A DNA stretch of 64,000 nt from assembly GCA_044432975.1 (NCBI GenBank), contig JAWXUC010000002.1:24573-88572 (forward strand), in the 5' to 3' direction. This stretch comes from Alphaproteobacteria bacterium (GTDB taxonomy: Bacteria; Pseudomonadota; Alphaproteobacteria; RF32; CAG-239). Below, in pieces: positions 2,122 to 38,015 of this stretch (position 1 is its first letter; every line of letters starts with the position of its first letter). Position numbers and translations under genes: made by a program. The notes beneath the pieces are model-generated. The model ran no database searches, had not been told where the DNA came from, and saw nothing but the letters and a program-made list of their open reading frames with translations.

Positions 2122-2151
2122 AAAAGGCAGAATTAATTTTCTGCCTTTTTT
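2122..2151 (+). terminator. rho-independent terminator after fabH
   Basis: Hairpin aaggcagaa/ttctgcctt followed by a T-tract. Confidence 0.6.
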
Positions 2152-2163
2152 ATGTAAAAAAGA

Positions 2164-2192
2164 TTGACAAAAAACAATCCTTCTGCTAAATA
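2164..2192 (+). promoter_or_regulatory. sigma70-like promoter candidate for the ClpA-like gene
   Basis: TTGACA, 17-nt spacer, TAAATA. A GGAG RBS lies 7 nt before the ATG at 2215. Confidence 0.35.
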
Positions 2193-2214
2193 GACAAAAT
2201 AACGGAGATTTAGT

Positions 2215-4428
2215 ATGGCAATAAAAGAGAATATTTATAACGTAATAAAAAAATATGCCGATTTTATAATAGAAAATTCATCATCAGCAGAAATGACTGA
2301 TGAAAACTTTTTTCAGTTTTTGTCAACTCAAAAAAAAGCATTAAATTACCTTAATAAAAAAGGTGTTGATATTGAAGCTTTTCAAAAATATTGCCAAAAA
2401 GGTATTGCAAAATCAAGAAAATACAATCAAGAAATTTGGGCTGATGAAATATCTTTTAATGATACTTCTGACATGTCTGGTTTTTTAGGATCTGTTTTAA
2501 GCAAATCTGGTTATCAAGCAGGATATAACGAATTTATAGATGAAATGGTTGTTGCAATAAATGCCTCTGCAGTAGGCAACAATAATTCAGGATTATTTGA
2601 TTTTGCAGATAAAGAAGAGTTAGATAAAATTATTGAAATGGGTTTTGATATATCTAAATTTTCCTTAGATAAAGCACAAGATACTGTAGATTATGCAAAC
2701 TATGAATATCAAGAAAGAGGTTATGAACTACTTATTACTATCCCTGATTTATATAATAAGATAAAAGATTATGACGTTCATGCAAAAAAACAAGAAAACC
2801 AACCAATAATCGTTGGCTTTGAAGAAGAGCTAGAAAAAGTTTACAAGTTGTTTAATAAATTAGATAGTGCATTAATAAATGTTTCAGGAGATTTTGGTGT
2901 TGGCAAAAGTTCTTTTGTAAAAAAAATAAAAAACAACCTAAAAAAACAAAAAAAATCATGCTTATTTTCTGAAGCAAATATTAGTATTCCTGAGTTTGAC
3001 GCTTTTCTAGCAGAGGTGAAAAATAATGATAGGGTTGCTATCATTGATGATTTTGATGAGTTACCTGTTCAGCATAAAGCAATTTTTTATCAATATGTAA
3101 ATGAAATAAAATCAGTAGTTGTAACAGATAAAAAACTTATTGGATCAGATGTTTTTATAGATATGAAAACTCCTTCAACAGAAGAAACCTTAAAAATACT
3201 CTCAACAAACAAAACAAGATATGAAAATCATCATAAATTAACCATAGATGATGATGTATTAAAAGATTGTATAGAGCTTTCAAATAAACACTTAAAAAAT
3301 TTAAATCAACCATTAGGTGCTTTTACTCTTTTAGACACTTCCTGCGCATTTGTCAAAGATGAAGAATATTTAAATACTTCTCATCTTCAAACAGCCTTAA
3401 ACACAGTTTACGAAATACCTAATCAAACCATTTTTGATACATACTCACAAAAGATAATGCATTTACCAGATATTTTATCAGAAGAAATTTTAGGACAAAC
3501 AGATGCGTTTAATACTATAAGAAAACATTTAACACAGCAAATTATTTTCCCAAGATCTGGCAAACCCAAAGCAAGTTTTATCTTTGCAGGTTCTTCAGGT
3601 GTCGGAAAAACACAAACTGCAAAAAACTTGGCAAAAACTTTGGGTTTAAAATATCTTCAATATGACATGGGTGAATATTCTCAAGAAATGGATGTAAACA
3701 AATTTTTAGGCTCTGCCGCAGGCTATGTTGGTTATGATGAAGGCGGAAAATTAGTTAATGATGTTTCAGCAAACCCAAACAGCTTAATTGTATTTGATGA
3801 GATAGAAAAAGCAAACCCCAAAGTAGTACGAGGTTTATTGTCAGCATTAGAAGAAGCAAGATTGCAATCAGGAAACGGAAAAACAGCATCTTTTGAAGAT
3901 ACAATAATCATCTTAACCACCAATTCAGGTTTTAGTTCTCAAGAAATCAGAAAACCTGTTGGATATGGCACAAATTCACAAGCCACACAAAAAATATCAT
4001 CAGTTCAAATCTCAGATAAATTAAGCAAAGATTTTCCATCTGAGTTTTTATCAAGAGTTAATGCTAAAATAGCATTCCAACCTTTGAGCACAGATGTTTC
4101 AAAAGAAATTATAAAACTAAATCTTAATAAATATAAAAAGATAGCAAAAAAGAACCAAGATATAGATTTAGATTTTACTCCACAAGTTACAGATGTTGTG
4201 TTAAGAGAGGCATTTTCTCAACAACAAGGTGCTAGAAATATAGAAAACTACATTAGAGAACACATTTTATCTGATTATTCAACAAAGTTTTTAAATAAAG
4301 AACTTAAAAGCGGCGATAAAGTAGTAGTTACTTATAATAGTCAATCAAAAGAATTTGTTAGTAGAAAAGCACCAAAACAAGATGGTTTAGTAGTGGTTGC
4401 TCAAAGAAAAGTAGTTACTCAACGTTAA
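2215..4428 (+). CDS. divergent ClpA-like two-domain AAA+ ATPase with a non-canonical N-terminal domain of about 210 aa
   Basis: The D2 region (FIFAGSSGVGKTQTAKNLAKTLG ... LIVFDEIEKANPKVVRGLLSALEE ... IIILTTNSG) aligns closely with the ClpA/ClpB D2 domain. The D1 region keeps Walker A (GDFGVGKSS) and the ClpA D1 C-terminal block (TPSTEETLKILSTNKTRYENHHKLTIDDDVLKDCIELSNKHL). There is no ClpB middle domain. The N-domain is unlike the ClpA/ClpS-binding N-domain. Confidence 0.6.
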   Translation: MAIKENIYNVIKKYADFIIENSSSAEMTDENFFQFLSTQKKALNYLNKKGVDIEAFQKYCQKGIAKSRKYNQEIWADEISFNDTSDMSGFLGSVLSKSGYQAGYNEFIDEMVVAINASAVGNNNSGLFDFADKEELDKIIEMGFDISKFSLDKAQDTVDYANYEYQERGYELLITIPDLYNKIKDYDVHAKKQENQPIIVGFEEELEKVYKLFNKLDSALINVSGDFGVGKSSFVKKIKNNLKKQKKSCLFSEANISIPEFDAFLAEVKNNDRVAIIDDFDELPVQHKAIFYQYVNEIKSVVVTDKKLIGSDVFIDMKTPSTEETLKILSTNKTRYENHHKLTIDDDVLKDCIELSNKHLKNLNQPLGAFTLLDTSCAFVKDEEYLNTSHLQTALNTVYEIPNQTIFDTYSQKIMHLPDILSEEILGQTDAFNTIRKHLTQQIIFPRSGKPKASFIFAGSSGVGKTQTAKNLAKTLGLKYLQYDMGEYSQEMDVNKFLGSAAGYVGYDEGGKLVNDVSANPNSLIVFDEIEKANPKVVRGLLSALEEARLQSGNGKTASFEDTIIILTTNSGFSSQEIRKPVGYGTNSQATQKISSVQISDKLSKDFPSEFLSRVNAKIAFQPLSTDVSKEIIKLNLNKYKKIAKKNQDIDLDFTPQVTDVVLREAFSQQQGARNIENYIREHILSDYSTKFLNKELKSGDKVVVTYNSQSKEFVSRKAPKQDGLVVVAQRKVVTQR

Positions 4429-4984
4429 TAGATTTTAATTTTTGTTTTTGATAATTATTCATAGACTTATAAACTAAAACAGCGCTTTTCTTAGCATTTT
4501 CAACCCCTAAATTATATGCTTTTTTATACAACATAAAAGATTCTATTAAATCTTGCTCAACTCCGATTCCTTTTGCATTCATAAAAGCCAAAAGTTCTGT
4601 TGCTTGAGGGTCTTTTCTTTTAATCCTGTTATTTATAATCTCAATTTCAAAAGGGGTAACTTTATCTTGCTGAATTGCTAAAATAACCGCTTGCCATTTT
4701 AATTCTTCAGCTTTTTGTTGCGCAGTTCTTTTTGCTATTTTATTTTCAAAAAATATAACATTTTCATTATTTTCAGATTCTTCTGGAGTTATATTTTCAA
4801 CATTTTCAATATCTTTCAAAAAGTTGGGAGCTTCTCTGTTTTTTACAAACAAAGGAAGATAGTCTTCATTATCAGCTTTTACAATTTCACGATAAATTTC
4901 ATCAAGATTAGTGGTTTCACCAAAACAAATATTTGGTAAAAAAGCAAAAAAAGATAAAATAAATATTAAATTTTGAATTTTCAT
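4415..4984 (-). CDS. secreted Sel1-like repeat (SLR/TPR-like) protein
   Basis: N-terminal signal peptide MKIQNLIFILSFFAFLPNICFG. Sel1-type repeats (…AELLAFMNAKGIGVEQDLIESFMLYKKAYNLGVENAKKSAVLVY). Confidence 0.5.
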   Translation of the reverse strand: MKIQNLIFILSFFAFLPNICFGETTNLDEIYREIVKADNEDYLPLFVKNREAPNFLKDIENVENITPEESENNENVIFFENKIAKRTAQQKAEELKWQAVILAIQQDKVTPFEIEIINNRIKRKDPQATELLAFMNAKGIGVEQDLIESFMLYKKAYNLGVENAKKSAVLVYKSMNNYQKQKLKSINVE

Positions 4985-7629: not shown

Positions 7630-7950
7630 TTACTCTTTTAAAAACAATCCTAACCTGTGCAAAGCATAACCAATGTCATGAACATAAAATATTGCATGAG
7701 GCACATATTGAACCATGTTAGAAAATGCAGGATTACACATTCCCTTTTGAGCAATGAAAATTGAAGACAAAGCCCATGGCGCACCGCTGGTATTATTGTC
7801 TATAACAACAATCTTATCCCAAAAAACCGTGTCATTAACATTCAAAATTCCAGAGATGTTCATTAAAAAATTAGGGTTAAATGCTTCTTGATATCCATCG
7901 AGCAAATTGTTTTCTTCTAAAAAGTTTTTCACTTCATAAAGTTTCTTCAT
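7630..7950 (-). CDS. small hypothetical protein, paralog A of a tandem pair
   Basis: 106 aa. C-terminus YVHDIGYALHRLGLFLKE matches the neighbour's YVIDIGRAMHELGLFFFE. Has its own downstream hairpin. Confidence 0.5.
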   Translation of the reverse strand: MKKLYEVKNFLEENNLLDGYQEAFNPNFLMNISGILNVNDTVFWDKIVVIDNNTSGAPWALSSIFIAQKGMCNPAFSNMVQYVPHAIFYVHDIGYALHRLGLFLKE

Positions 7951-8189: not shown

Positions 8190-8519
8190 TTATTCAAAAA
8201 AGAATAACCCTAGTTCATGCATTGCACGTCCAATATCTATTACATAAATAACAACAGACGGAACACCCTTTAGTGCTTTGTGATACTCCTCTGATATTGT
8301 CCACTCCTGAACTAAAAAAACAACCGCAGTTGTTCTTTCAAAAACGCTGTCCGCATAAATAGGAACTATTTTGTCGTTATGCGGATGATTATCATCACGA
8401 GCAAAATCAACAATGTTTTTATCTCTAGGAATTTCTGACATTACGTTTATTTCGCAAGCAGCAAAAAGTTTTTTTTCTTTTAGACGATCAATGCAAGGCA
8501 TTAGATTTTTCATAAGCAT
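8190..8519 (-). CDS. small hypothetical protein, paralog B of a tandem pair
   Basis: 109 aa with a C-terminal block shared with 7630-7950. Confidence 0.5.
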   Translation of the reverse strand: MLMKNLMPCIDRLKEKKLFAACEINVMSEIPRDKNIVDFARDDNHPHNDKIVPIYADSVFERTTAVVFLVQEWTISEEYHKALKGVPSVVIYVIDIGRAMHELGLFFFE

Positions 8520-8653: not shown

Positions 8654-8728
8654 TGGGCTGTCGCCAAGTGGTAAGGCACCGGTTTTTGGTATCGGCATTC
8701 GTTGGTTCGAATCCAGCCAGCCCAGCCA
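8654..8728 (+). tRNA. tRNA-Gln (anticodon UUG)
   Basis: Hand-folded cloverleaf. Acceptor TGGGCTG/CAGCCCA with the U1:A72 pair typical of tRNA-Gln. D-stem GCC/GGC. Anticodon stem CCGGT/ATCGG with loop TTTTGGT, giving anticodon TTG. T-arm GTTGG-TTCGAAT-CCAGC, discriminator G, encoded CCA. Confidence 0.8.
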
Positions 8729-10258: not shown

Positions 10259-10957
10259 TCAATCTTCTTGCCAAGAGGTTGGACGAGTTGCGATAATGTT
10301 ATCACTATCATCTTTTATAACATCATCAAATTGAGATAACCTCAAGGCTTTCATATCAATTTTTCTAATTACTTTACTTGTAAACTCTTGTATAAAGTCA
10401 TAACAAATATTTGAATGAGGACATAAAATTAAAATCTTTTTATTAAGTTGAGTTACAATTTTAATTGGCTCTAGTAAATCTGAATCATTTGTGACAATCA
10501 CAGCCATATCAAAATTATTTTGGCAAGCATCAAAGACTAAATGTGATGCTAAATTAACATCAGAACCTTTTTCTTCTGTTTTGATAACATTTGCAAATGT
10601 AATAGGATTTGTAACGGGGTGCAAAGGCATTGAAACTTTGTGTTTATAAAACTTGCCTTTGTGAATTGATAAATTTTCAATAGAGCTTAAAGCTTTGAAA
10701 TATTCTTGCTGTCTTATTGGGCTTTTATCGCCTTCAAACAAAGCTTGAACTTCTGCTGTATAAAAATTAATTGCTTCAAGAGAAAAGTCGCCTTTTAGAT
10801 AATAAGAAATTAAGGCTTCAACATTTAGCCACCTTACAGCTTTTTTTGATTGTTTAATTTTTTGCTTTACATCTTCAGGTATTGATGATTTAATTTTACC
10901 AGATTTTAATGCTCCATAAAATAAATTATATCCATCAATATATGCTCTTATTCTCAT
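10259..10957 (-). CDS. NYN/LabA-like (PIN-fold) domain protein
   Basis: MRIRAYIDGYNLFY N-terminus and the AVIVTNDSDLLE acidic motif are typical of the NYN/LabA nuclease-like domain. Confidence 0.65.
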   Translation of the reverse strand: MRIRAYIDGYNLFYGALKSGKIKSSIPEDVKQKIKQSKKAVRWLNVEALISYYLKGDFSLEAINFYTAEVQALFEGDKSPIRQQEYFKALSSIENLSIHKGKFYKHKVSMPLHPVTNPITFANVIKTEEKGSDVNLASHLVFDACQNNFDMAVIVTNDSDLLEPIKIVTQLNKKILILCPHSNICYDFIQEFTSKVIRKIDMKALRLSQFDDVIKDDSDNIIATRPTSWQED

Positions 10958-11732: not shown

Positions 11733-12335
11733 TTAATACCAATCAACACGAGCTAAATATCTTCTTAATGTTATTGTTTGAACGTCAAGGATTTTGGCGA
11801 TTTTGCGTTGAGATAGTCCTTTATCTAATAAATTCTTTATTTTTCTTGAGTTCTTAGCAAGTTTTAATTTTTTTGATTGTGCAGATAAGGGACGGCCTAG
11901 TTTTTTGCCGTTTGCTCTAACGCTATCTAATGAGGCCTTTGTGCGTTGAGAGATTAGGTTTCTTTCTATTTCTGCTGACAAACCAAATGCAAATGCCATC
12001 ACCTTGGATTGTATATCATTGCCTAAAGAATAATTTTCTTTGATTGTGATAATTTTGCAACCTTTAGACAAGCAATTTTCTAGTATTTTCATAACTTCTA
12101 GCAAAGAACGACCTAGCCTTGATATTTCTGTTGAGATTAACATATCGCCTTCTTGCAATTCTTCTAACAAAGTGCCTAGTTTTCTTTTATTTAATGATTT
12201 TCTTGAAGATATAGTTTCTTCAACCCAGCGATTTATTGTAATATTATTGGCTTTTGCATATTTTTTAATCTCAAATTTTTGATGTTCTGTTGTTTGTTTA
12301 TTGGAACTAACTCTAATATATCCCACAATTTGCAT
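11733..12335 (-). CDS. small serine recombinase (resolvase/invertase family; Hin/Gin/TnpR-like)
   Basis: 200 aa. MQIVGYIRVSSNKQ catalytic-serine N-terminus, the LISTEISRLGRS motif, and a C-terminal HTH (LSQRKIAKILDVQTITLRRY). Confidence 0.8.
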   Translation of the reverse strand: MQIVGYIRVSSNKQTTEHQKFEIKKYAKANNITINRWVEETISSRKSLNKRKLGTLLEELQEGDMLISTEISRLGRSLLEVMKILENCLSKGCKIITIKENYSLGNDIQSKVMAFAFGLSAEIERNLISQRTKASLDSVRANGKKLGRPLSAQSKKLKLAKNSRKIKNLLDKGLSQRKIAKILDVQTITLRRYLARVDWY

Positions 12336-12622: not shown

Positions 12623-15217
12623 ATGAAACTTTCAAAAACAGGAATTGTTGCTTTATCAAAGCAATATCGCTCTGTACTAAAAAAATGTTTTTTAATCAAC
12701 GCAGGTATTTTTATGTTTGCGGCACCAGCTATGGCTGCAGATACACAATTTATAGATACAAATGAAACTATAGAGCAATTAACTGGCACTTATGAAAAAT
12801 ACACAACTCCACAAGCATTTTATGGACAAGGCGGTGCTATTAGCAACTCAGGAACAATTAATAATGTAGAAGCAACTTTTTCAAACAATAGTGCAGTTTC
12901 TTCTACTAATATAGGCATGGGTGGTGCTATTTTTAATAATAACAAAATTGAAGAAATAAATTTAAGTACTTTTTCTAATAATGATTCAATTCTTGCTGGT
13001 GGTGCAATAACAAATACAGCAAACGGCAACATTGATAAAATTTCAAATTCAAAATTTAATAAGAATAAATCAATAACTGGTGGTGCAATTTATAATGCAG
13101 GAACAATCTCATTAATAGAAAAAGTAACATTATCTAGCAATGCTGCAATAAATGAAGGTGGTGCAATTTACTCAACAAATGGTCTTGATGTTGCTGACTC
13201 AAATTTTTCAACAAACTCTGCAAATTATGGTGGGTCGATTTCTGTTTATGGTGATAGTGCAAATATCTCTGGTTCAACTTTTAACGGAAACTTTACAAAC
13301 ACAACAAGTAATGAAGAATACTCTGAAGGAGGCGCGATTTATTCTGAAGCAGATGAATTAACTATTACTGACTCAACTTTTGAGAATAATAAAGCACTAA
13401 CTAATGATGGTTGGGGTGGTGCAATAAGCTCTTATAACAATACTGCAATCTCAAATTCAACATTTATAAACAACTCTGCAAATAATGCTGGAGCATTATC
13501 TTTGGCTGATAATGCTAGCATAAAAGGTTCAAAATTTACTGGCAACTCTGCAACCAATCAAGGAGGAGCAATTTTTTCATATGGCGCAACATTATCAATA
13601 AGCGACACTTTATTTGAATCAAATACAAGTAAAAAAATTGGTGGAGCTATTATGAATGATGGTAATTTAACATTAACAGATGTTACTTTTGATGGCAACT
13701 CTGCAAAATATGGTGGCGCTATTTATAATGAAGATGAAAGTTCTTTAACATTAAAAGGGACAACAACACTTGCAACTGCTACAGACACGATATACAATGC
13801 TTCTGATGCAAAAATTAATGTTTCTTCTGGTGCAAATCTTATAAATAACTCGATCATATCAAATAATGGAACATTTACATTTGAAAATGGTTCTTCTTAT
13901 GAATTTGCTTATGATTCTGGTTATGTTGATGGTACAATGACATTGAATGGAAATGTTAATCTAAGCACAATTATTGCAAACGGAACAGCTGATGGATCTT
14001 ATAAATTTGCAGAAGATATTAATGGTGATGGGACTTGGACTTTAGCAAAAAATAATCTTTATAACTTAAGCTTAAACAACACTTCAAATGAAGTTTCTAT
14101 AAAACTTAAATCATCTGATGATATTGCTACTTCTACTGGTGCAACAAACAATGCTGCAAGTGCTGTTTCTGCTGTTATTTCTGGTAGCGCAACAACTTCT
14201 AATGATGCTTTTAATGCTGTAGCAACATCAATCAATAATGGTTTACAATCTTCTGACGCAAGCGTTAGAGCTGCAGCTTTGAAAACAGTTGAACAAATGT
14301 CTTCAGACACAACATCTTCAGCTCAAAGTTCAACAGTAGCTAGTGCTAGTGCAACATTTGGTACAGTAGGAACACGTCTTTCTGGTGGTTCTGTAGCTTC
14401 TTCAACTTCTGGTATGAATTCTGGTGATTCTTATTTAGAAGGTGGTGCTGTTTGGGCTCAAACAATGATTAATACTGCATCATTAAGTGGTTCTAACGGT
14501 TTTGACTCAGATTCAAACGGTGTTGCATTTGGTGCTGAAAAACAAATTAATGATAATGTTAAAGCTGGTATTGGTTATGCTTATAGCAATACAGATATTG
14601 ACACATCTTCTCGTACTACAGACGCTGATACAAATACATTCTTTGTTTATGGTGAATACAAACCATCAAACTGGTATGTAAACGGTATTGCAAGTTATAG
14701 CTTTGCTTCTTATGATGAAAGCTCAAACACAAAAACATCTTCTTATGATGTAGATTCTTTTGGTTTGCAAGCTATGACTGGTTATGATATGACTGTTAAA
14801 AATGTAGATGTTACTCCAGAAGCAGGATTACGTTATGTTAAAGTTTCTCAAGATTCATATACAGATACTTTAGATTCTAAAATCTCTGGTGATGATTCTG
14901 ATATCTTAACTGCTGTTGTTGGTGCAAAAGCAGGTAAAACATTTGCTCTTGAAAATGGTTCAACATTACGTCCAGAAGTTAAAGCTGCTTTAACTTATGA
15001 CTTGTTTAATGATGATGCAAATTCTATTGTAACATTAGTAAACGGTTCTAGTTATACTACAAACGGTGAAGCTTTAGATAAATTCGGAATGGAATTTGGT
15101 GTTGGCTTTACAGCTGATGTTAATGAACAAGTTGAATTATCTTTAGGTTATGAAGGAAAATTCCGTTCAGACTACGAAGATCACACAGGAACATTAAATG
15201 TTAAATATAAATTTTAA
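12623..15217 (+). CDS. autotransporter outer-membrane protein with a Pmp-type (GGAI / FxxN) repeat passenger domain
   Basis: 864 aa. Extended signal peptide ending in AMA. At least 12 GGA[IL] plus FxxN repeats, as in Chlamydia polymorphic membrane proteins. Ser/Thr-rich linker. C-terminal beta-barrel domain ending …LNVKYKF with a terminal aromatic residue. Confidence 0.7.
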   Translation: MKLSKTGIVALSKQYRSVLKKCFLINAGIFMFAAPAMAADTQFIDTNETIEQLTGTYEKYTTPQAFYGQGGAISNSGTINNVEATFSNNSAVSSTNIGMGGAIFNNNKIEEINLSTFSNNDSILAGGAITNTANGNIDKISNSKFNKNKSITGGAIYNAGTISLIEKVTLSSNAAINEGGAIYSTNGLDVADSNFSTNSANYGGSISVYGDSANISGSTFNGNFTNTTSNEEYSEGGAIYSEADELTITDSTFENNKALTNDGWGGAISSYNNTAISNSTFINNSANNAGALSLADNASIKGSKFTGNSATNQGGAIFSYGATLSISDTLFESNTSKKIGGAIMNDGNLTLTDVTFDGNSAKYGGAIYNEDESSLTLKGTTTLATATDTIYNASDAKINVSSGANLINNSIISNNGTFTFENGSSYEFAYDSGYVDGTMTLNGNVNLSTIIANGTADGSYKFAEDINGDGTWTLAKNNLYNLSLNNTSNEVSIKLKSSDDIATSTGATNNAASAVSAVISGSATTSNDAFNAVATSINNGLQSSDASVRAAALKTVEQMSSDTTSSAQSSTVASASATFGTVGTRLSGGSVASSTSGMNSGDSYLEGGAVWAQTMINTASLSGSNGFDSDSNGVAFGAEKQINDNVKAGIGYAYSNTDIDTSSRTTDADTNTFFVYGEYKPSNWYVNGIASYSFASYDESSNTKTSSYDVDSFGLQAMTGYDMTVKNVDVTPEAGLRYVKVSQDSYTDTLDSKISGDDSDILTAVVGAKAGKTFALENGSTLRPEVKAALTYDLFNDDANSIVTLVNGSSYTTNGEALDKFGMEFGVGFTADVNEQVELSLGYEGKFRSDYEDHTGTLNVKYKF

Positions 15218-27862: not shown

Positions 27863-30583
27863 ATGGAACTTAACCAAGCAATTAAGTTAGTAAAATCAGG
27901 CGAGTTTAAAGAACTAGCCATTTTTGACTTATGGGAACTTACATCTGTTTTAGAAGCATCTAACTCAACAGATGCTCAAATAGCCCTTCAAGAAGTAAAT
28001 GGAGTTTATTCTCAATCTTATATGAAAGATGAAAACAAAAACTTTGGAGAAATTGTAAAAACAAACATAAAAGCAATAGAAGCTTTAAATTACAACCCAA
28101 TGTCAGATGTTGAAAATAAAGAAGTTCAAAGAATAAACAAAATTTTTAACAATATAGAAATAGAAAACACTCCTGATGCAGATTATGTTTCTCATCAAGA
28201 CTTTAAAGATTTTATGATAGAAGTTTCAGATTTAGAAGCTCAAGAAGTTTTATTAAAAAACAAAAACTTTGCTCAATTAGATAAAACAGAACAAAAAAAG
28301 GCTTATAACAACGCTTTCTTTTCTTCAATACAAGCAAACTTAGTTACTTTGGTTAGCAACACTTTTCGCCCTAAAAACTTGCAAGAGGCAAACGAGCTAT
28401 CAAAAGAAGCTATGTCTGGCTTAGTAAATGCCAACAAAAAATTCAAAGTTACAAATACAAACGCTATTGCTATTATTAACAATGCTTATAAAAGAACAAA
28501 AACCTTTGCAGATAACTTAGCTAAAAAAACAGGCATTTCTTGGTTGGCCCAAAAGGTTAAAGCTTTTGATAAAAAAGCTTCAGAAAAATTCCCAACATCA
28601 TGGGGATTATTAAAAACATTTGGCACATCTTATGGTGCAATGGTATTTGGTGGTCCCGTTGGTATTGCAGCTTTAAGTGGATACAATTTATACAAAACAA
28701 CCAAAGCTATAAATAAAGAAGCTCAAGCCAACAATAAAAACTTCTTCCAACAAGTATTTAGCAAACCAAGTACTGCAATTTCATTTAGTATTGCAATTGC
28801 AGGTACAGCATTAACAGGTTATTCTGCATTTTCATCTGGCTTTAACTATGGTTTAATAGAAAAAGCTTTTGATGGTAAAGCTATAGAAGGAGTTAAAACT
28901 TTAGGAGCTAATTTAAGCACATTTAACTTTGATGCATTAAAAAACACAGATTTTTGGAAAAGAACTGCAGTAATGTCTTCAGGTTCATTAGCTGTTATTT
29001 CAGAAGAAGTTTATGGAGCATTAAATACTAAAGATAAAAAAGAAAGAAAAGCTAGATGGAAAAAAGTACAAGCTGTTGCCTTAACATCTATAGCAGGTAT
29101 TGGACTTGGTGCAACAACAAACGCCTTAATGTCAGAAGCAACCGTTGCTACAAATACAGACACAAATACAGATATTAATACAGACACAAAGCAACCTGCA
29201 ACCCCAGAACCTGTTGCAACAACTGAATTAAATACAGAAAGAAAATTCAACTTCTTCGATAAATTTATTTCTGGAGATAATAATAACAATTCTCAAGAAT
29301 TCAAAGTTGTTGCAGATAACACTCAAGATACAACTCAAACCACAGAACCTGTTGCAACAACTGAATTAAATACAGAAAGAAAATTCAGCTTCTTCGATAA
29401 ATTTATTTCTGGAGATAATAATAACAATTCTCAAGAATTCAAAATTGTTGCAGATGATGTTCAAAATACAAATCAAACATCAGATGTTGTTACAACAGAA
29501 GCATCTCAAGATGTTTCAGATTTCATTAAAGACACACACAGAAGCTATAGTGCAGATGAATTTAGAGACAGCCATAGAATTATGAACATGTGGGTTGAAA
29601 AAGACAACTTAAACTCTGTAATAAGCAACTTGCAAGAAGCCGGCTTAACAGAAGCTGAAGCATATAGATATGCTCACAATGCAGCTATTTGTGGTTCTCA
29701 AACAACAGATAGCATTTCACAAGCAGCTCCTAGTTATGAAGGCGAATTTGATGCAAGCAGACAAACTTGTGGCAGAACAGCTTCTAACGGATATCACACA
29801 TTATGGGGTGGCAAAGCCCTTGTTGATGCTGGTTTAACATTAGATGCCAGAAACACATTAGCAGGATCTGTTAACTTCCATACAGGTGAGGTTATTATCT
29901 CTCAAGAAGCTATGACAGCTTTTAGAGACTTTGACGCCAGATTAATTGACAATGGTGTTATTGACACAGGCGCATTAGTTAATGCCAACGCAAGTGATTG
30001 CAACCATTTATCAGGAAACACTCGTATAAATGAACATGGTCAATCTGTTTTAGGCAGCAATGGTGGAAACCGTTTTTCATCTTATGCCACAACAGATGTT
30101 AAACCAACACCAGTAGCAACTCCAGAACCTGTTATAGTTCCTGAAAAAGTTGTTGAACCAGTTGTAATACCAAAGCCAATAATTAATGAGCCAATTGTTT
30201 TTCCAGAAAGACTTGTAATTCCAGAACCTATTATAATTCCAGATCCTGTTGTTGCTCCAGAACCTATTATAACTCCAGATCCTGTAGTTGAACCAAGAGC
30301 TAACAGCGGACACTATGACAACTATGAAGATTTGTTAAGACAAGTAGGCATAGATCCCGCAACAGAAACTCCACTTGATTCAACAGAATTAAAAGATATC
30401 TTAAATTCAAATGGTGGACACTCAAGTGATTTGAACTCATTAAATTCTACAGAAAACACTCAATCAAATCATTATGATAGCAAACAAGATTTGTTAGAAC
30501 AAATGAACATAGAGCCTGCTGAAGAAGAAAAACCATTAACAGCAAGACAATTAAGAAGAATGTTAAGACAATCTTCAAGATAA
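27863..30583 (+). CDS. large repeat-containing hypothetical protein; putative secreted or effector protein
   Basis: About 906 aa from the RBS-supported ATG; the track ORF begins at 27800. Four Gly/Ala-rich hydrophobic segments. A 46-aa tandem duplication (TEPVATTELNTERKF[NS]FFDKFISGDNNNNSQEFK). A Pro-rich PEPV/PDPV region. No signal peptide. Confidence 0.5.
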   Translation: MELNQAIKLVKSGEFKELAIFDLWELTSVLEASNSTDAQIALQEVNGVYSQSYMKDENKNFGEIVKTNIKAIEALNYNPMSDVENKEVQRINKIFNNIEIENTPDADYVSHQDFKDFMIEVSDLEAQEVLLKNKNFAQLDKTEQKKAYNNAFFSSIQANLVTLVSNTFRPKNLQEANELSKEAMSGLVNANKKFKVTNTNAIAIINNAYKRTKTFADNLAKKTGISWLAQKVKAFDKKASEKFPTSWGLLKTFGTSYGAMVFGGPVGIAALSGYNLYKTTKAINKEAQANNKNFFQQVFSKPSTAISFSIAIAGTALTGYSAFSSGFNYGLIEKAFDGKAIEGVKTLGANLSTFNFDALKNTDFWKRTAVMSSGSLAVISEEVYGALNTKDKKERKARWKKVQAVALTSIAGIGLGATTNALMSEATVATNTDTNTDINTDTKQPATPEPVATTELNTERKFNFFDKFISGDNNNNSQEFKVVADNTQDTTQTTEPVATTELNTERKFSFFDKFISGDNNNNSQEFKIVADDVQNTNQTSDVVTTEASQDVSDFIKDTHRSYSADEFRDSHRIMNMWVEKDNLNSVISNLQEAGLTEAEAYRYAHNAAICGSQTTDSISQAAPSYEGEFDASRQTCGRTASNGYHTLWGGKALVDAGLTLDARNTLAGSVNFHTGEVIISQEAMTAFRDFDARLIDNGVIDTGALVNANASDCNHLSGNTRINEHGQSVLGSNGGNRFSSYATTDVKPTPVATPEPVIVPEKVVEPVVIPKPIINEPIVFPERLVIPEPIIIPDPVVAPEPIITPDPVVEPRANSGHYDNYEDLLRQVGIDPATETPLDSTELKDILNSNGGHSSDLNSLNSTENTQSNHYDSKQDLLEQMNIEPAEEEKPLTARQLRRMLRQSSR
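29207..29454 (+). repeat. intragenic tandem duplication (about 110 bp near-identical, 138-bp period, 2 copies)
   Basis: gaacctgttgcaacaactgaattaaatacagaaagaaaattca… repeated at 29207 and 29345. Confidence 0.7.
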
Positions 30584-33701: not shown

Positions 33702-34675
33702 AAACACCAATTTTATTTTTAACATGGATAAGACCAGATGTTACAGCAGAAGTTTTTTCTCAAATCAGAAAAGCAAAACCTGAAAGACTATATATTGCAC
33801 AAGATGGACCGAGGTGCGAAGAAGAAAGAACTTTAATGATGCAAACAAGAGATGTTATTAAAGTTGATTGGGATTGTGAAGTTAAATACCTTCATAGAGA
33901 AGAAAATTTAGGCTGCAAAAGAGGTGTTAGTGAAGCTATAACATGGTTTTTTGAACAAGAAGAAATGGGAATTATTTTAGAAGATGATTGCTATCCCGAC
34001 ATGTCATTTTTTCCATTTTGCGAAGAACTTTTAGAAAAATATAAAGATGATACAAGAGTTATGCATATTTGTGGAAGACCAGATATAAAATATTTCAACA
34101 AAAGAGATATTAGTGAACGCAGTTATTATTATACTAAAATATTAGGTTGCTGGGGTTGGGCTTCATGGCGAAGAGCTTGGCAATATTTTGATATAAATAT
34201 GTCAAATTTTAATGATTTTGTAAAAGAGAGTGCTATTGATAAGTTTTTACCTTGCGATCCAAATATAAATCGTTATTTGGAAATATTTAAATCACATTCC
34301 ACTGGAAAAGAAAAAGGCTGGGCATGGATTTATGCTTATAGCTTACTTTGTCAAAATGCTTTATGTATAAGATCCTCTAAAGTTTTAATTAACAACATAG
34401 GTGTAAACCATGAAATTTCAACACATAAACATTCAGGTGCTGCTGACGTTATTTACAAAAAAGAAGTTGCAGAATTTCCTTTAATTCACCCAAATTTCAT
34501 GGTTGCTGAAAATTACATCAACCAAAAAGAACTAAATAAAAAAACTTTATTAAAAAAAGAGGTGTTATCAAATGGACGGGTTAAATTTTATTTATTTGGT
34601 AAAAGGATTTACTCATACAAAACAAAAAACACTAAAATATTAAATCAAAAAATAGAGCTTATTAATTTAGATTAA
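33698..34675 (+). CDS. putative glycosyltransferase (GT-A-like); ends with the cluster's recurrent YLFGxxI.SYK motif
   Basis: ATGA overlap with the upstream GT. An ILEDDCYP acidic motif. C-terminal …NGRVKFYLFGKRIYSYKTKNTK. Confidence 0.35.
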   Translation: MKTPILFLTWIRPDVTAEVFSQIRKAKPERLYIAQDGPRCEEERTLMMQTRDVIKVDWDCEVKYLHREENLGCKRGVSEAITWFFEQEEMGIILEDDCYPDMSFFPFCEELLEKYKDDTRVMHICGRPDIKYFNKRDISERSYYYTKILGCWGWASWRRAWQYFDINMSNFNDFVKESAIDKFLPCDPNINRYLEIFKSHSTGKEKGWAWIYAYSLLCQNALCIRSSKVLINNIGVNHEISTHKHSGAADVIYKKEVAEFPLIHPNFMVAENYINQKELNKKTLLKKEVLSNGRVKFYLFGKRIYSYKTKNTKILNQKIELINLD

Positions 34676-34688
34676 TAAAGGAAGTAAA

Positions 34689-35567
34689 ATGTTAGACAAT
34701 AAAAAAATTATAGTTTCTTTAACATCATATCCAGCAAGAATAAAAACAGTGCACAAAACAATAGAAACACTACTTGCACAGTCTCAAAAAGCAGATATGA
34801 TTATATTAAACTTAGGAGAAGATAAATTTATCAATAAAGAAGATGATTTACCTTCAGAATTGGTTAAATTAACAACACAAGGATTAACTATTAATTGGTG
34901 TAAGGATATTGGACCTTTTACAAAATTAATTCCAACATTAAAAAAATATCCTAAAGCTGTTATAATAACAGCTGATGATGATATTCTTTATAATAAAAAC
35001 TGGTTAAAAAAATTATACAACTCTTACTTAAAAGAACCTAATTTAATTCATTGTCATAGAGCACATCTTGTATTATTTGACAAACAAAATAATATTAGAC
35101 CTTATCAAGAATGGACACATGAACAAACAAAAAGCTCAACATCTTTTAATAATTTTTTAACAGGCGTTGGCGGAGTTTTATATCCTCCAAACTGTTTTTA
35201 TAAAGATATTTTTAAAGAAGATATTTTTATGCAACTAACCCCAAATGCTGATGATATTTGGTTTTGGGCTATGGCACTTTTAAATGACACAAAAATAAAA
35301 ATAATTAAAAATAAAATCATAAAATTAAAATACATCAAAAATTCACAAAAAATATCCTTATACCACCAAAACCTATTGCAAAACAAAAATGACGCTAAAC
35401 TACAAGCTGTAATTAATTATTACCCCCAAATAAAAGATAAACTAGAGATAATAACAAAAGTTAATAAGAAAATAAAACTTTTCAAAAAAGAAAAATCACC
35501 AAACGGTGGGGGAGTATTTTATTTATTCGGAATAAAAATTTTAAGCTATAAAAAAAGGGGAAACTAA
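34689..35567 (+). CDS. putative glycosyltransferase; C-terminal recurrent motif
   Basis: N-terminal IVSLTSYPARI and ADDDI. C-terminal …KSPNGGGVFYLFGIKILSYKKRGN. Confidence 0.4.
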   Translation: MLDNKKIIVSLTSYPARIKTVHKTIETLLAQSQKADMIILNLGEDKFINKEDDLPSELVKLTTQGLTINWCKDIGPFTKLIPTLKKYPKAVIITADDDILYNKNWLKKLYNSYLKEPNLIHCHRAHLVLFDKQNNIRPYQEWTHEQTKSSTSFNNFLTGVGGVLYPPNCFYKDIFKEDIFMQLTPNADDIWFWAMALLNDTKIKIIKNKIIKLKYIKNSQKISLYHQNLLQNKNDAKLQAVINYYPQIKDKLEIITKVNKKIKLFKKEKSPNGGGVFYLFGIKILSYKKRGN

Positions 35568-36347
35568 ATGAAAATATTCAAAAAAATAAAATCAGCAAAC
35601 GGCAGAAGAAAAATTTATTTATTAGGAATAAAAATTTTAAGCTATAAAAATAAAAAAAATATTAAATTTTGTCCTATTTGTAATAATGAAAATACATTTA
35701 ATGGATTTGGCACAGTCTTAAGAAAAGATGCTATGTGTCCTGTATGTCGTTCATTGGAACGACATAGATTTTTATTTTTTATATATAATTTATTTTTCTT
35801 GCAAACTACAAGAAAAATAAAGGTGTTACATATTGCACCTGAAAAAGCAATATATGATATGATAATAAAGAATTCTAATATAGAATATCATCATATTGAT
35901 ATAGATCCATCTCAATACCCATATGCTTTGGGATGCAAACAAATGAATGCTTTAAATTTACAATTTAAAGATGAAACTTTTGATTTTATTATTCACAACC
36001 AAGTTATCGAACATATTGTTGATGAACAAAAATTTATTAATGAACAATTAAGAGTGTTAAAAGATAATGGTAAAATAATTGTAAATCTTCCATATAAAAG
36101 TGATTTGGAAAAAACTTTTCAAGATGATAACATAAAAACTGATGAAGATAGATTGAAATATTATTTACAAAAAGATCACGTTAGACTTTATGGACTTAAT
36201 ATGTTAGAAAACTTAAAAGGTGTAAATATAGAGAGAATTTTTGAAGACTTTATGACTACAAAATTAATTAATGAAATGCAATTAAAAAGAAATTTTATAG
36301 ATTTAGAAGATGCATATTTTTTAATCACAAAAAAAGAAAGGAAATAA
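35568..36347 (+). CDS. class I SAM-dependent methyltransferase with an N-terminal recurrent motif
   Basis: N-terminal MKIFKKIKSANGRRKIYLLGIKILSYKNKK. The methyltransferase core …FDFIIHNQVIEHIVD… is homologous to the C-terminal domain of 36349-37818. Confidence 0.6.
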   Translation: MKIFKKIKSANGRRKIYLLGIKILSYKNKKNIKFCPICNNENTFNGFGTVLRKDAMCPVCRSLERHRFLFFIYNLFFLQTTRKIKVLHIAPEKAIYDMIIKNSNIEYHHIDIDPSQYPYALGCKQMNALNLQFKDETFDFIIHNQVIEHIVDEQKFINEQLRVLKDNGKIIVNLPYKSDLEKTFQDDNIKTDEDRLKYYLQKDHVRLYGLNMLENLKGVNIERIFEDFMTTKLINEMQLKRNFIDLEDAYFLITKKERK

Positions 36348-36348
36348 A

Positions 36349-37818
36349 ATGAAAATAAGTTTAATTATACCTGTTTACAATGCATTAGAGGATGTAAAAA
36401 AATGCTTAAATAGTATATGTGAAAACTATAATAAATCTTATGAATTTATTATAGTTGACGACTCTTCTGATAACATAACTAGTGACTATCTCAAAAATTT
36501 TGCAAAAGAAAATAATTTTGTAAAATTATACAGAAATAAAGAAAATCTTGGTTTTGTTAAGACATGTAATTTTGCAATTAATAAAGCAAAAGGAGATATT
36601 GTTGTTTTATTAAATTCAGACACAATTATACCTTCAATGTTTGCAGAAAAAATTATAGATGCTTTTAATAAAAATGAAAAAGCAGGAATTGCATGTCCTA
36701 TTCCTAGTAGTAGTGGTCATTTTAGTTTAGAAATGCCTAAAAATTTTACTGTAGAGAAAATGAATAAATTAATTAACAAAAGACATACTCAATACCCCAA
36801 ACTTCCTTCATGCAATGGGTTTTGTTTTTGTATTAAACGAGAAGTTATTAACTCTATTGGTTACTTAGATGAGATCTATGGAAAAGGTTATGGGGAAGAA
36901 ATTGATTATTCATATAAAGCAATAGTTAATAAATTTGATTGTATCCTAATAGATAATTTATATGTTTTTCATAAAAGACATGCTTCTTTTGGAAATCAAA
37001 GAGATAAATTAAGCTTAAAAGGTAGCGAAATATTAAGAGAACATTGGGGAGATTTCTCTGAAGAATGGATAAAAGAAAATAAATATGTTAATCCAGTTTC
37101 TAAAATTGAGAAAAAAATATTCATTTCAAGAAAAACGTTTTTAACAAAAATAAAAAAAGAAAATGGTAGAAGAATAATTTATTTATTTGGAATTAAAATA
37201 TTAAGCTATAAGAAAAAAGTTAAACCCAAAAAGTATATTCCTTTAATAAAAAAAGAAGGCAAAAGATGGTTGGAAATTGGTCCTGGAAATGAAAGAATAG
37301 AAGGATTTGAAGGCTTAAACATTGTTAAAAACAATGCAACTGATTATATTGCCGATGTTGCAAAAGATGGAATTCCTTTTATAAATGAAAGTTTTGATTT
37401 AGTTTATTCATCTCATTTTCTTGAACATATAGAATGGTATAAAACTAAAGATGTTATTATAGAGATGTATAGAGTATTAAAAAAAGGTGGACATGTAGAA
37501 ATTCACGTTCCTGATGGATTAAAAATAGCAAAAGCTTTTGTTGATGCTGAAATGAAAAATTCTAAAGATTTTCATAAAGATAATTGGTGGAAATTTAATG
37601 ATGACAAAGATCCTTGCATTTGGGCAAGTGGTAAAACTTTTACATATGGAGATGGGAATGTAATTAAAGGACATTGGAATTCTCATTTAGCAATGTTTTC
37701 TTATAGATATTTAGAAAAACTATTAAAAGAAATTGGTTTTAAAAACATTAAGAAGTTAGACAAACCAAGAGGACATAACCACGGCTGGATTAACTTAGGA
37801 ATTAGCGGTGAAAAATAA
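36349..37818 (+). CDS. bifunctional GT2 glycosyltransferase / methyltransferase fusion, joined through the recurrent motif
   Basis: N-terminal GT2 domain (ISLIIPVYNALEDV…IIVDDSSDN). Linker …KENGRRIIYLFGIKILSYKKKV…. C-terminal methyltransferase (…FDLVYSSHFLEHIEW…). Confidence 0.65.
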   Translation: MKISLIIPVYNALEDVKKCLNSICENYNKSYEFIIVDDSSDNITSDYLKNFAKENNFVKLYRNKENLGFVKTCNFAINKAKGDIVVLLNSDTIIPSMFAEKIIDAFNKNEKAGIACPIPSSSGHFSLEMPKNFTVEKMNKLINKRHTQYPKLPSCNGFCFCIKREVINSIGYLDEIYGKGYGEEIDYSYKAIVNKFDCILIDNLYVFHKRHASFGNQRDKLSLKGSEILREHWGDFSEEWIKENKYVNPVSKIEKKIFISRKTFLTKIKKENGRRIIYLFGIKILSYKKKVKPKKYIPLIKKEGKRWLEIGPGNERIEGFEGLNIVKNNATDYIADVAKDGIPFINESFDLVYSSHFLEHIEWYKTKDVIIEMYRVLKKGGHVEIHVPDGLKIAKAFVDAEMKNSKDFHKDNWWKFNDDKDPCIWASGKTFTYGDGNVIKGHWNSHLAMFSYRYLEKLLKEIGFKNIKKLDKPRGHNHGWINLGISGEK

Positions 37819-37828
37819 ACTAAAATCC

Positions 37829-37862
37829 AACCTCCGCTTAAATAATTAAGCGGAGGTTTTTT
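37829..37862 (+). terminator. rho-independent terminator ending the glycan cluster
   Basis: cctccgcttaa/ttaagcggagg stem followed by a T8 tract. Confidence 0.7.
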
Positions 37863-38015
37863 ATTTTATTCCAAATGATAAAAAAAAGTCACTCCTCAAA
37901 TTATAGCAACAATTTGATTAGGAGTCTTCCTTTGAAAAATAAAAATTGAAGATTCCTAATCATTGCTTCGCAATGAGGAATGACTTTTTTCTCATATTTT
38001 AGGAAATCATTCTTA

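Follow-up and report, generated by a model that had tools for sequence, protein, structure and literature searches.

A strongly diverged ClpA-type unfoldase with a probably non-catalytic first AAA+ ring in an alphaproteobacterial lineage

Here we describe a ClpA-type Hsp100 protein of 737 amino acids (aa), encoded in a stretch of 64,000 nucleotides (nt) on contig JAWXUC010000002.1 of an alphaproteobacterial genome (assembly GCA_044432975.1; the whole stretch is called the window below). The first of its two AAA+ rings, D1, has probably decayed to a non-catalytic scaffold, and the second, D2, has kept the motifs of a complete motor. The protein is a real but highly diverged ClpA-type unfoldase, and not a new kind of system. 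With confidence slightly better than even, we favour the reading that it is a lineage-specific and very fast-evolving Hsp100 in which D2 is the only motor and docks the protease ClpP, with D1 retained as a non-catalytic tier. The evidence consists of the domain architecture, the state of the motifs, the predicted fold of the N-terminal domain (N-domain), a clade of relatives that preserves a series of stages in the decay of D1, and the rate at which the gene has evolved. As a principle, the inactivity of one of two rings has precedents among other type II AAA+ proteins.

The gene is an intact open reading frame (ORF), and no ORF of comparable length overlaps it in the window. The identical protein is deposited at NCBI as MFI3241316.1, under the bare name ‘MAG: AAA family ATPase [Alphaproteobacteria bacterium]’, and six contigs from at least two sequencing runs encode it. 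Pfam recognises the lid of D1 and both subdomains of D2 (Table 1), and returns no Clp_N match and no AAA match for the D1 core. The best NCBIfam model is that of ClpA (TIGR02639), which matches only aa 297-706 and scores 286 bits against an equivalog cutoff of 993 bits; the same model comes out on top for every member of the clade described below (325-517 bits, also under the cutoff), in each case as a single stretch without an M-domain. Sequence matches in the PDB are to ClpC and ClpA proteins (1e-55 to 1e-52), led by ClpC of S. aureus (6e-55). Because an alignment with E. coli ClpA, ClpB and other Hsp100s shows nothing inserted at the site of the M-domain of ClpB and ClpC, and because a short ClpA-style ‘LGL/LGI’ junction follows the Walker A motif of D2, the architecture is, judged by sequence, ClpA-type (class I, M-domain-less Hsp100), with two tandem AAA+ modules joined directly. 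The order of the parts, namely Clp_N fold, D1, D1 lid, D2 and D2 small subdomain, is likewise that of E. coli-type ClpA. ClpC of the type found in Firmicutes, Actinobacteria and plastids has VGF, LGF or IGF docking loops whose longer segment after the tripeptide aligns best with the loop of our protein, but it also has a short coiled-coil M-domain and a fully active D1, neither of which is present here, and the insert of about 45-60 aa that ClpC-like sequences carry between D1 and D2 is missing. Assignment to the ClpB/Hsp104 class is contradicted by the missing M-domain, by the presence of a docking loop and by the score on the ClpB model (227 bits against a cutoff of 1232). An earlier sequence-only reading of the stretch had called the protein a ClpA-like double AAA+ unfoldase of atypical kind, and both parts of that description are borne out; the motifs that it quoted (GDFGVGKS, VAIIDDFDE, GSSGVGKT, LIVFDEIEKA, TTNSG and VGY) all lie where it had placed them. 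The divergence explains the bare database name, and the annotation should rather speak of a divergent, ClpA-like protein whose N-domain has the Clp_N fold.

In D1, only the Walker A motif remains of what catalytic competence calls for. The large subdomain has 123 aa in place of the 163 aa of E. coli ClpA, about 40 fewer. The pore-1 loop (ClpA AGTKYRGDFEKRF) is deleted, and the 41-residue stretch that separates Walker A from Walker B has no Tyr; the Walker B motif itself reads IIDD and not hhhhDE, and about 22 residues are gone after it. Arg is absent from the 41-residue segment that leads from Walker B to the lid, which leaves no possible D1 arginine finger under any alignment. The losses thus go far beyond the degeneracy of D1 that the earlier reading had noticed, and extend to the pore loop, the Walker B Glu, some 22 residues and every candidate arginine finger. 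Even so reduced, the domain proves by profile comparison to be a ClpA-type D1 in decay rather than a P-loop domain of foreign origin, because an hhalign alignment of three degenerate D1s with 144 canonical ones runs from the linker through Walker B at 97.9% (E 5e-13); it has a 13-residue gap exactly at the pore loop and does not continue past Walker B. A full-length AlphaFold model, with a predicted local distance difference test (pLDDT) score of 72, is confident in the N-domain, the D1 lid and D2.

D2 presents the opposite picture. K465, D528-E529, Y504 of the GYVG loop, N570, R614 and G672-A673-R674 all stand in columns that are invariant across 34-35 Hsp100 sequences, and by its motif content D2 appears catalytically competent, in keeping with the earlier description of this half as ClpA-like. 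A Gln directly after Walker A (GKTQ) is a signature of the clade.

That clade is small. An exhaustive HMMER search with aa 1-320 against 1.84 billion representative proteins returned only seven: the protein of the window (hereafter the query), four others with the same N-terminal region (P0121, P0122, P0123 and P0124) and two weak matches confined to the P-loop. P0122 and P0124 are fragments, and P0121 (763 aa, locus L006) and P0123 (822 aa, locus L005) are full-length. A DNA pattern for the clade-specific GVGKTQxAK[ND]LAK found a single genome locus, L008, on contig CAYJIO010000071.1 (record label ‘uncultured Azospirillaceae bacterium’), which encodes an ortholog of at least 743 aa whose 5′ end is lost at the contig end; the clade has only these four full-length members, the query included. 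The same pattern gave no match in metagenome contigs, an alignment of the N-domain gave no confirmed relative there, and a single-protein scan of genome contigs with the query gave no relative. A word-indexed protein search proved unreliable for sequences so divergent: with aa 1-320 of the query it gave no match at all, the query included, and with the clade alignment it gave generic Hsp100s only, although P0121 and P0123 were part of that alignment.

Together the clade members form a natural series that leads from a canonical D1 to a remnant with little more than a P-loop, with D2 and the docking loop intact throughout. D1 is canonical in P0122 and P0123 (GKT and IDE-H, with RRF in P0123), and the pore-loop Tyr of P0123 is already Leu; in P0121 and the L008 ortholog, Walker A ends in GKQ, Walker B is degenerate (CVDN and LVEE) and RRF is gone; the query has suffered further deletions beyond that state. 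In a quick and rough neighbour-joining tree of the D1 lid and D2, which does not resolve where the clade stands among ClpA, ClpB and ClpC, the clade has a bootstrap of 100%, P0123 branches first, and the three members with a dead D1 group together at 85%. This basal position of P0123 and the grouping of the trio agree with a single loss of D1 function in an ancestor, after which decay proceeded independently. The four full-length proteins are only 29-40% identical to each other. The earlier reading had allowed that the protein might simply be the standard ClpA of its lineage. This is so for the N-domain type and the xGY loop, which are lineage traits because P0121, P0123 and the L008 ortholog share them, and it is not so for the degenerate D1, which is missing from the basal member. 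In the literature, of which our coverage is incomplete, we met no account of a ClpA-type protein from bacteria whose D1 is dead by nature.

Where other Hsp100s have the tripeptide that docks ClpP, the query has Val-Gly-Tyr, 11 residues past the sensor-1 Asn; the IGL of E. coli ClpA lies 10 residues past it. The tripeptide aligns with this IGL and with the IGF, VGF and LGF of other ClpP-docking Hsp100s, among which the IGF motif is what sets them apart from ClpB (PMC7966870); E. coli ClpB, for its part, has a gap at this position. A loop-extraction pattern matched 84 of 174 homologs and placed the tripeptide in the expected position in 74 of them. The third residue is Phe in 67 of these, Leu in two, Val in one and Tyr in four, so that the dominant form is [ILV]-G-F. 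Measured against [ILV]-G-[FL], the loop of the query is present and correctly placed, but its third residue is Tyr. By alignment, the Tyr is a conservative aromatic substitution, confined among the 74 tripeptides to the clade and maintained in all of its full-length members. The earlier reading had spoken of an altered docking loop; the tripeptide is indeed non-standard, but ‘altered’ overstates the case for a loop of the right position and length.

The N-domain is also less foreign than it had seemed. The earlier reading took it for a replacement unrelated to the N-domain of ClpA, and the protein might then be a ClpA paralog in which an unrelated domain had been swapped in to serve another adaptor or substrate set. 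The lack of a Pfam Clp_N match in any clade member, an N region about 50 aa longer than Clp_N, and poor conservation of the ClpS contacts would suit such a swap. However, a structure model of aa 1-197, predicted from a shallow alignment of five sequences (pLDDT 79, predicted template modelling score 0.79), gives a strongly diverged and enlarged Clp_N with its class I double repeat, and the swap, which we rate as very improbable, is refuted at the level of the predicted fold. The signal at sequence level is borderline: hhalign aligns the N-domain with the Clp_N profile at 84%, which falls to 56% when the L008 ortholog is added, and both alignments cover both repeats. The ClpA model aligns P0123 from model position 16 onwards in a single stretch. 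As for adaptor binding, the residues of E. coli ClpA that contact ClpS are E23, E28, T81 and R86 (PMC12493166). The equivalent of E23 is A/P/P/N/K/N in the clade and so not conserved, that of E28 is Glu in the query only, and the mapping of T81 and R86 varies with the alignment used; conservation of ClpS binding in the clade is, on this comparison, unsupported and not disproved.

Locus L008 is syntenic with the window, each having the ClpA-like gene, a convergent Sel1-like ORF, cysK, lptG and trmL, and this allows the rate of the gene to be set beside that of its neighbours. Between the two genomes, CysK is 79% identical, LptG 78% and TrmL 81%, whereas the ClpA-like protein is 35.5% identical and has thus evolved about four times faster; for comparison, the ClpA proteins of E. 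coli and Clostridium share 47% identity across two phyla. Synonymous sites are saturated at amino-acid identities of 35-40%. The Sel1-like ORF is a further observation here: it is 59% identical between the window and L008, against about 80% for the neighbouring housekeeping genes. The acceleration of the ClpA-like gene is compatible with relaxed as well as with positive selection, and in its extreme form the former would make the protein a relic in a shrinking genome, under strongly relaxed selection, heading to loss and of little or no function. Both the rate and the stepwise, lineage-specific decay of D1 with accumulating deletions would agree with such a relic. Yet a frame of 737-822 codons has stayed intact in four lineages of AT-rich genomes, where stop codons arise easily, and all catalytic residues of D2 are invariant. 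The gene has its own Shine-Dalgarno sequence and an upstream terminator-like hairpin. The domains, moreover, differ in rate: against the other three full-length members, the query is 43-49% identical in the D2 large subdomain, 30-34% in the D1 lid, 27-38% in the N-domain, 30-32% in the D2 small subdomain and 15-23% in the D1 core, which speaks for selection domain by domain and not for uniform drift. Taken together, the intact frames, the invariant D2 motifs and the domain-specific rates speak for a gene under selection and against a pseudogene, and we regard the relic as unlikely. Of similarly low probability in our estimate is the reading that the acceleration is adaptive and not a matter of relaxed constraint, in which case a ClpA lineage would have been rebuilt as a single-motor protease partner, with Clp_N and the Tyr loop co-evolving with lineage-specific partners such as an altered ClpP pocket, an adaptor other than ClpS, or a host or phage antagonist.

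For the favoured reading of a ClpP-docking protein driven by D2 only, we infer hexamer formation, ClpP docking, a scaffold role for D1 and a change of adaptor, as follows. The protein would assemble into a two-tiered hexamer with the D2 ring as its sole working motor; D2 would bind and hydrolyse ATP, grip the substrate by its GYVG pore loops and feed it into ClpP, which would be held through the Val-Gly-Tyr loops. The D1 ring would have ceased to engage substrate and would serve as a non-catalytic tier, for spacing or assembly, whose P-loop may continue to bind nucleotide. As the diverged Clp_N has changed less within the clade than the D1 core has, it probably goes on recruiting substrates or a non-canonical adaptor. 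By analogy with E. coli, a ClpS hand-off in the query is unlikely, since it requires the D1 pore loops. A sole D2 motor agrees with what is known of E. coli ClpA, in which D2 alone unfolds and translocates many substrates when D1 hydrolysis is inactivated, and D1 contributes engagement, processivity and ClpS-dependent delivery (PMC8666677).

Several points weigh against this mechanism. In E. coli ClpA, it is the D1 pore loops that start substrate engagement, and their loss could cripple the capture of substrates and not merely re-route it. The structure of D1 is predicted with low confidence: in the full-length model, built without the L008 sequence, the pLDDT of aa 245-311 stays under 50, and D1 is given no more than four strands. 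Tyr tripeptides occur in this clade only, the four found (VGY, LGY, VGY and IGY) being exactly its members, and in E. coli ClpX the loop changes I268L and F270L severely weaken ClpP binding (PMC7112951). Conservative changes having so strong an effect in ClpX, docking through VGY would, by analogy, probably need a co-adapted ClpP pocket; we met no data in the literature on a Phe-to-Tyr change in the docking loop. No clpP was found in the window and about 13 kb of flanking sequence, roughly 77 kb in all, nor in loci L001/L002, L005, L006 and L009. Finally, the rapid evolution of the gene is also compatible with weakened selection.

The protein might instead be a ClpP-independent remodeller or holdase, in which D2 works, the Tyr loop no longer docks ClpP, and clients are unfolded without being degraded. 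The restriction of Tyr to this clade among the extractable loops, the great sensitivity of ClpX loop-pocket contacts to conservative substitutions (PMC7112951) and the absence of clpP from the roughly 77 kb covered would all fit. Against it, a full docking loop stands at the right place, and the four xGY tripeptides have been kept despite an overall identity of 29-40%; had the loop lost its use, it would be expected to have degenerated, like D1, in a protein that changes so quickly. The Hsp100s known to act without ClpP, here ClpB and the P0006 family described below, lack the loop altogether, and the query has no M-domain through which it could be coupled to DnaK. We find this reading improbable.

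Proteins with one inactive ring are known or were seen here in other settings, and they help to place the ClpP-docking, D2-driven protein that we favour. Engineered E. coli ClpA with an inactive D1 (Walker B or pore-loop mutants) is a functional analogue, with D2 powering the work, but these laboratory point mutants keep the D1 fold, whereas the loss in the query is natural, multiple and accompanied by deletions. Among type II AAA+ proteins with an inactive ring, such as Pex1/Pex6 with its D1, one tier is a non-hydrolysing scaffold and the other the motor; the likeness to the query is one of principle only, since Pex1/Pex6 belong to an unrelated eukaryotic clade and are not coupled to a protease. 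A further, uncharacterised Hsp100 family of about 741-763 aa (P0006, P0044, P0045, P0053, P0057, P0076, P0081, P0086 and P0116) has Clp_N, an intact D2, no M-domain and no ClpP loop, its alignment showing a gap at the docking position; among NCBIfam models it scores highest on ClpB, with 608-623 bits where the cutoff is 1232. D1 is non-catalytic in this family (Walker B LLIES[IV]DKL; [STN]K[ILV] in place of RRF), and strong conservation extends to these degenerate motifs. Like the query, the family thus combines a non-catalytic D1 with the lack of an M-domain, but it keeps the D1 pore-loop Tyr and is without the ClpP loop that the query retains. It is a separate example of natural D1 inactivation, unrelated to the query clade.

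The division of labour between the rings has so far been studied mostly in engineered E. coli ClpA mutants, and the clade offers a natural counterpart. Should ClpP still be its working partner, the protein would reveal the minimum of D1 with which a ClpA-type protease can operate, and its Tyr docking motif would offer a natural variant in which to study the co-evolution of loop and pocket.

The surroundings of the gene were searched for partners. With E. coli ClpS, ClpP, ClpX, ClpB and Lon as queries, tblastn of the 64-kb window and of loci L001, L002, L005 and L006 matched only the gene itself and hslU in L005, and among the genes called in about 5 kb past the window on its right side there is none of a Clp family. 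The earlier observation that no clpS lies nearby is confirmed by this search and by the gene neighbourhoods, clpS being adjacent at none of the four clade loci. The order at P0121 (a cold-shock gene, a small ORF and the clpA-like gene) resembles the cspD-clpS-clpA order of E. coli; the small ORF, of 115 aa, was considered as a diverged ClpS and rejected, as it encodes a hydrophobic membrane protein. In L005 (2613-4449), hslV-hslU lie just upstream of P0123, the clade member with an intact D1, and its genome has at least one other AAA+ protease because they are on the same contig. The ORFs of L008 are the five syntenic ones and nothing else. The query is flanked by fabH on one side, as the sequence-only reading had said, and by the Sel1-like ORF, cysK, lptG and trmL on the other, and the other three members lie in different housekeeping contexts.

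These contexts bear on one more reading, that of an anti-phage defence ATPase like DolB or a secretion ATPase like ClpV/TssH. PADLOC models PDC-M37B (93 bits) and DolB (68 bits) and the ClpV model (222 bits) do match, and rapid evolution would suit a conflict system. But the PADLOC matches cover only the generic D2 and are weaker than that to ClpA, the ClpV score is far under its cutoff of 885 bits and the protein does not class with ClpV/TssH, and no partner genes of such a system are nearby, all four loci being of housekeeping type. We consider this the least probable of the alternatives, at the edge of what is credible.

Table 1. Features of the ClpA-like gene and its upstream region, in window coordinates.
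Feature	Position	Strand	Remarks
Terminator-like hairpin with T-run	2122..2152	.	between fabH stop and gene; consensus match only
TTGACA, perfect -35-like hexamer	2164..2169	+	direct reading, tentative
GGAG Shine-Dalgarno	2204..2207	+	7 nt upstream of ATG, direct reading
ClpA-type Hsp100 coding sequence	2215..4428	+	intact ORF, 737 aa
N-domain, strongly diverged enlarged Clp_N double repeat (predicted)	2215..2799 (aa 1-195)	+
Linker and D1 large subdomain, decayed ClpA-type AAA+ core	2800..3168 (aa 196-318)	+
D1 Walker A GDFGVGKS, K231	2887..2910 (aa 225-232)	+	canonical
D1 Walker B region VAIIDDFDE, D278-D279	3034..3060 (aa 274-282)	+	catalytic Glu replaced by Asp
D1 small (lid) subdomain	3169..3414	+	well preserved, joins D2 directly; Pfam AAA_lid_9, aa 321-401, 1e-14
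D2 large subdomain, complete AAA+ motor by motifs	3415..4074	+	Pfam AAA_2, aa 450-616, 4e-38; PDB ClpC/ClpA matches
D2 Walker A GSSGVGKT, K465	3589..3612 (aa 459-466)	+
D2 pore-1 loop AGYVGY, Y504	3718..3735	+
D2 Walker B LIVFDEIEKA, D528 and E529	3784..3813 (aa 524-533)	+
D2 sensor-1 LTTNSG, N570	3913..3930 (TTNSG aa 568-572)	+
Val582-Gly583-Tyr584 at the ClpP-docking tripeptide position	3958..3966	+	alignment
D2 arginine-finger region SEFLSRV, R614	4039..4059	+	invariant column
D2 small subdomain	4075..4344	+	Pfam ClpB_D2-small, aa 624-705, 1.5e-13
D2 sensor-2 GAR, G672-A673-R674	4228-4236	+	invariant

Upstream of the gene, the order is rpmF-plsX-fabH, with the fabH stop at 2099. The hairpin that follows has 11 pairs and is listed by the scan on the minus strand; the plus strand then reads TTTTTTAT. 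A weak -10 candidate, TAAATA, lies 17 nt downstream of the TTGACA hexamer, which the promoter scan did not call. The hairpin with its T-run, TTGACA and GGAG, all between fabH and the ATG and all consensus matches only, suggest that the ClpA-like gene is transcribed separately from fabH, as its own transcription unit.

At its 3′ end, the gene overlaps by 14 nt the convergent Sel1-like ORF (4415-4984, minus strand; 189 aa), which has a signal-peptide-like N-terminus and one weak Sel1 repeat match; at L008 the counterpart (2215-2796, minus strand) overlaps by 20 nt. Farther along, between trmL and tRNA-Gln (8654-8728), are two paralogous small ORFs on the minus strand, of 106 aa (7630-7950) and 109 aa (8190-8519), which share the C-terminal motif Y[VI]xDIGxAxHxLGLFxxE and have no Pfam match. 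Close to the same tRNA gene lie an ORF with a NYN domain (10259-10957) and a serine resolvase (11733-12335), both on the minus strand, perhaps what is left of a small integrated element; they are followed at 12623-15217 by an autotransporter that carries a POMP repeat. Two long plus-strand ORFs, of 898 aa (18523-21219) and 927 aa (27800-30583), have essentially no family and match nothing in NCBIfam or PADLOC, the former showing only a weak Zeta_toxin-like P-loop match. The guanine-cytosine (GC) content of the window is 31.5%, and drops to about 25% at 34-38 kb (34001-38000). The cumulative GC skew climbs as far as about 24-26 kb and declines steadily over the rest of the window, a turn that may reflect a switch in strand bias or simply a change in gene orientation.

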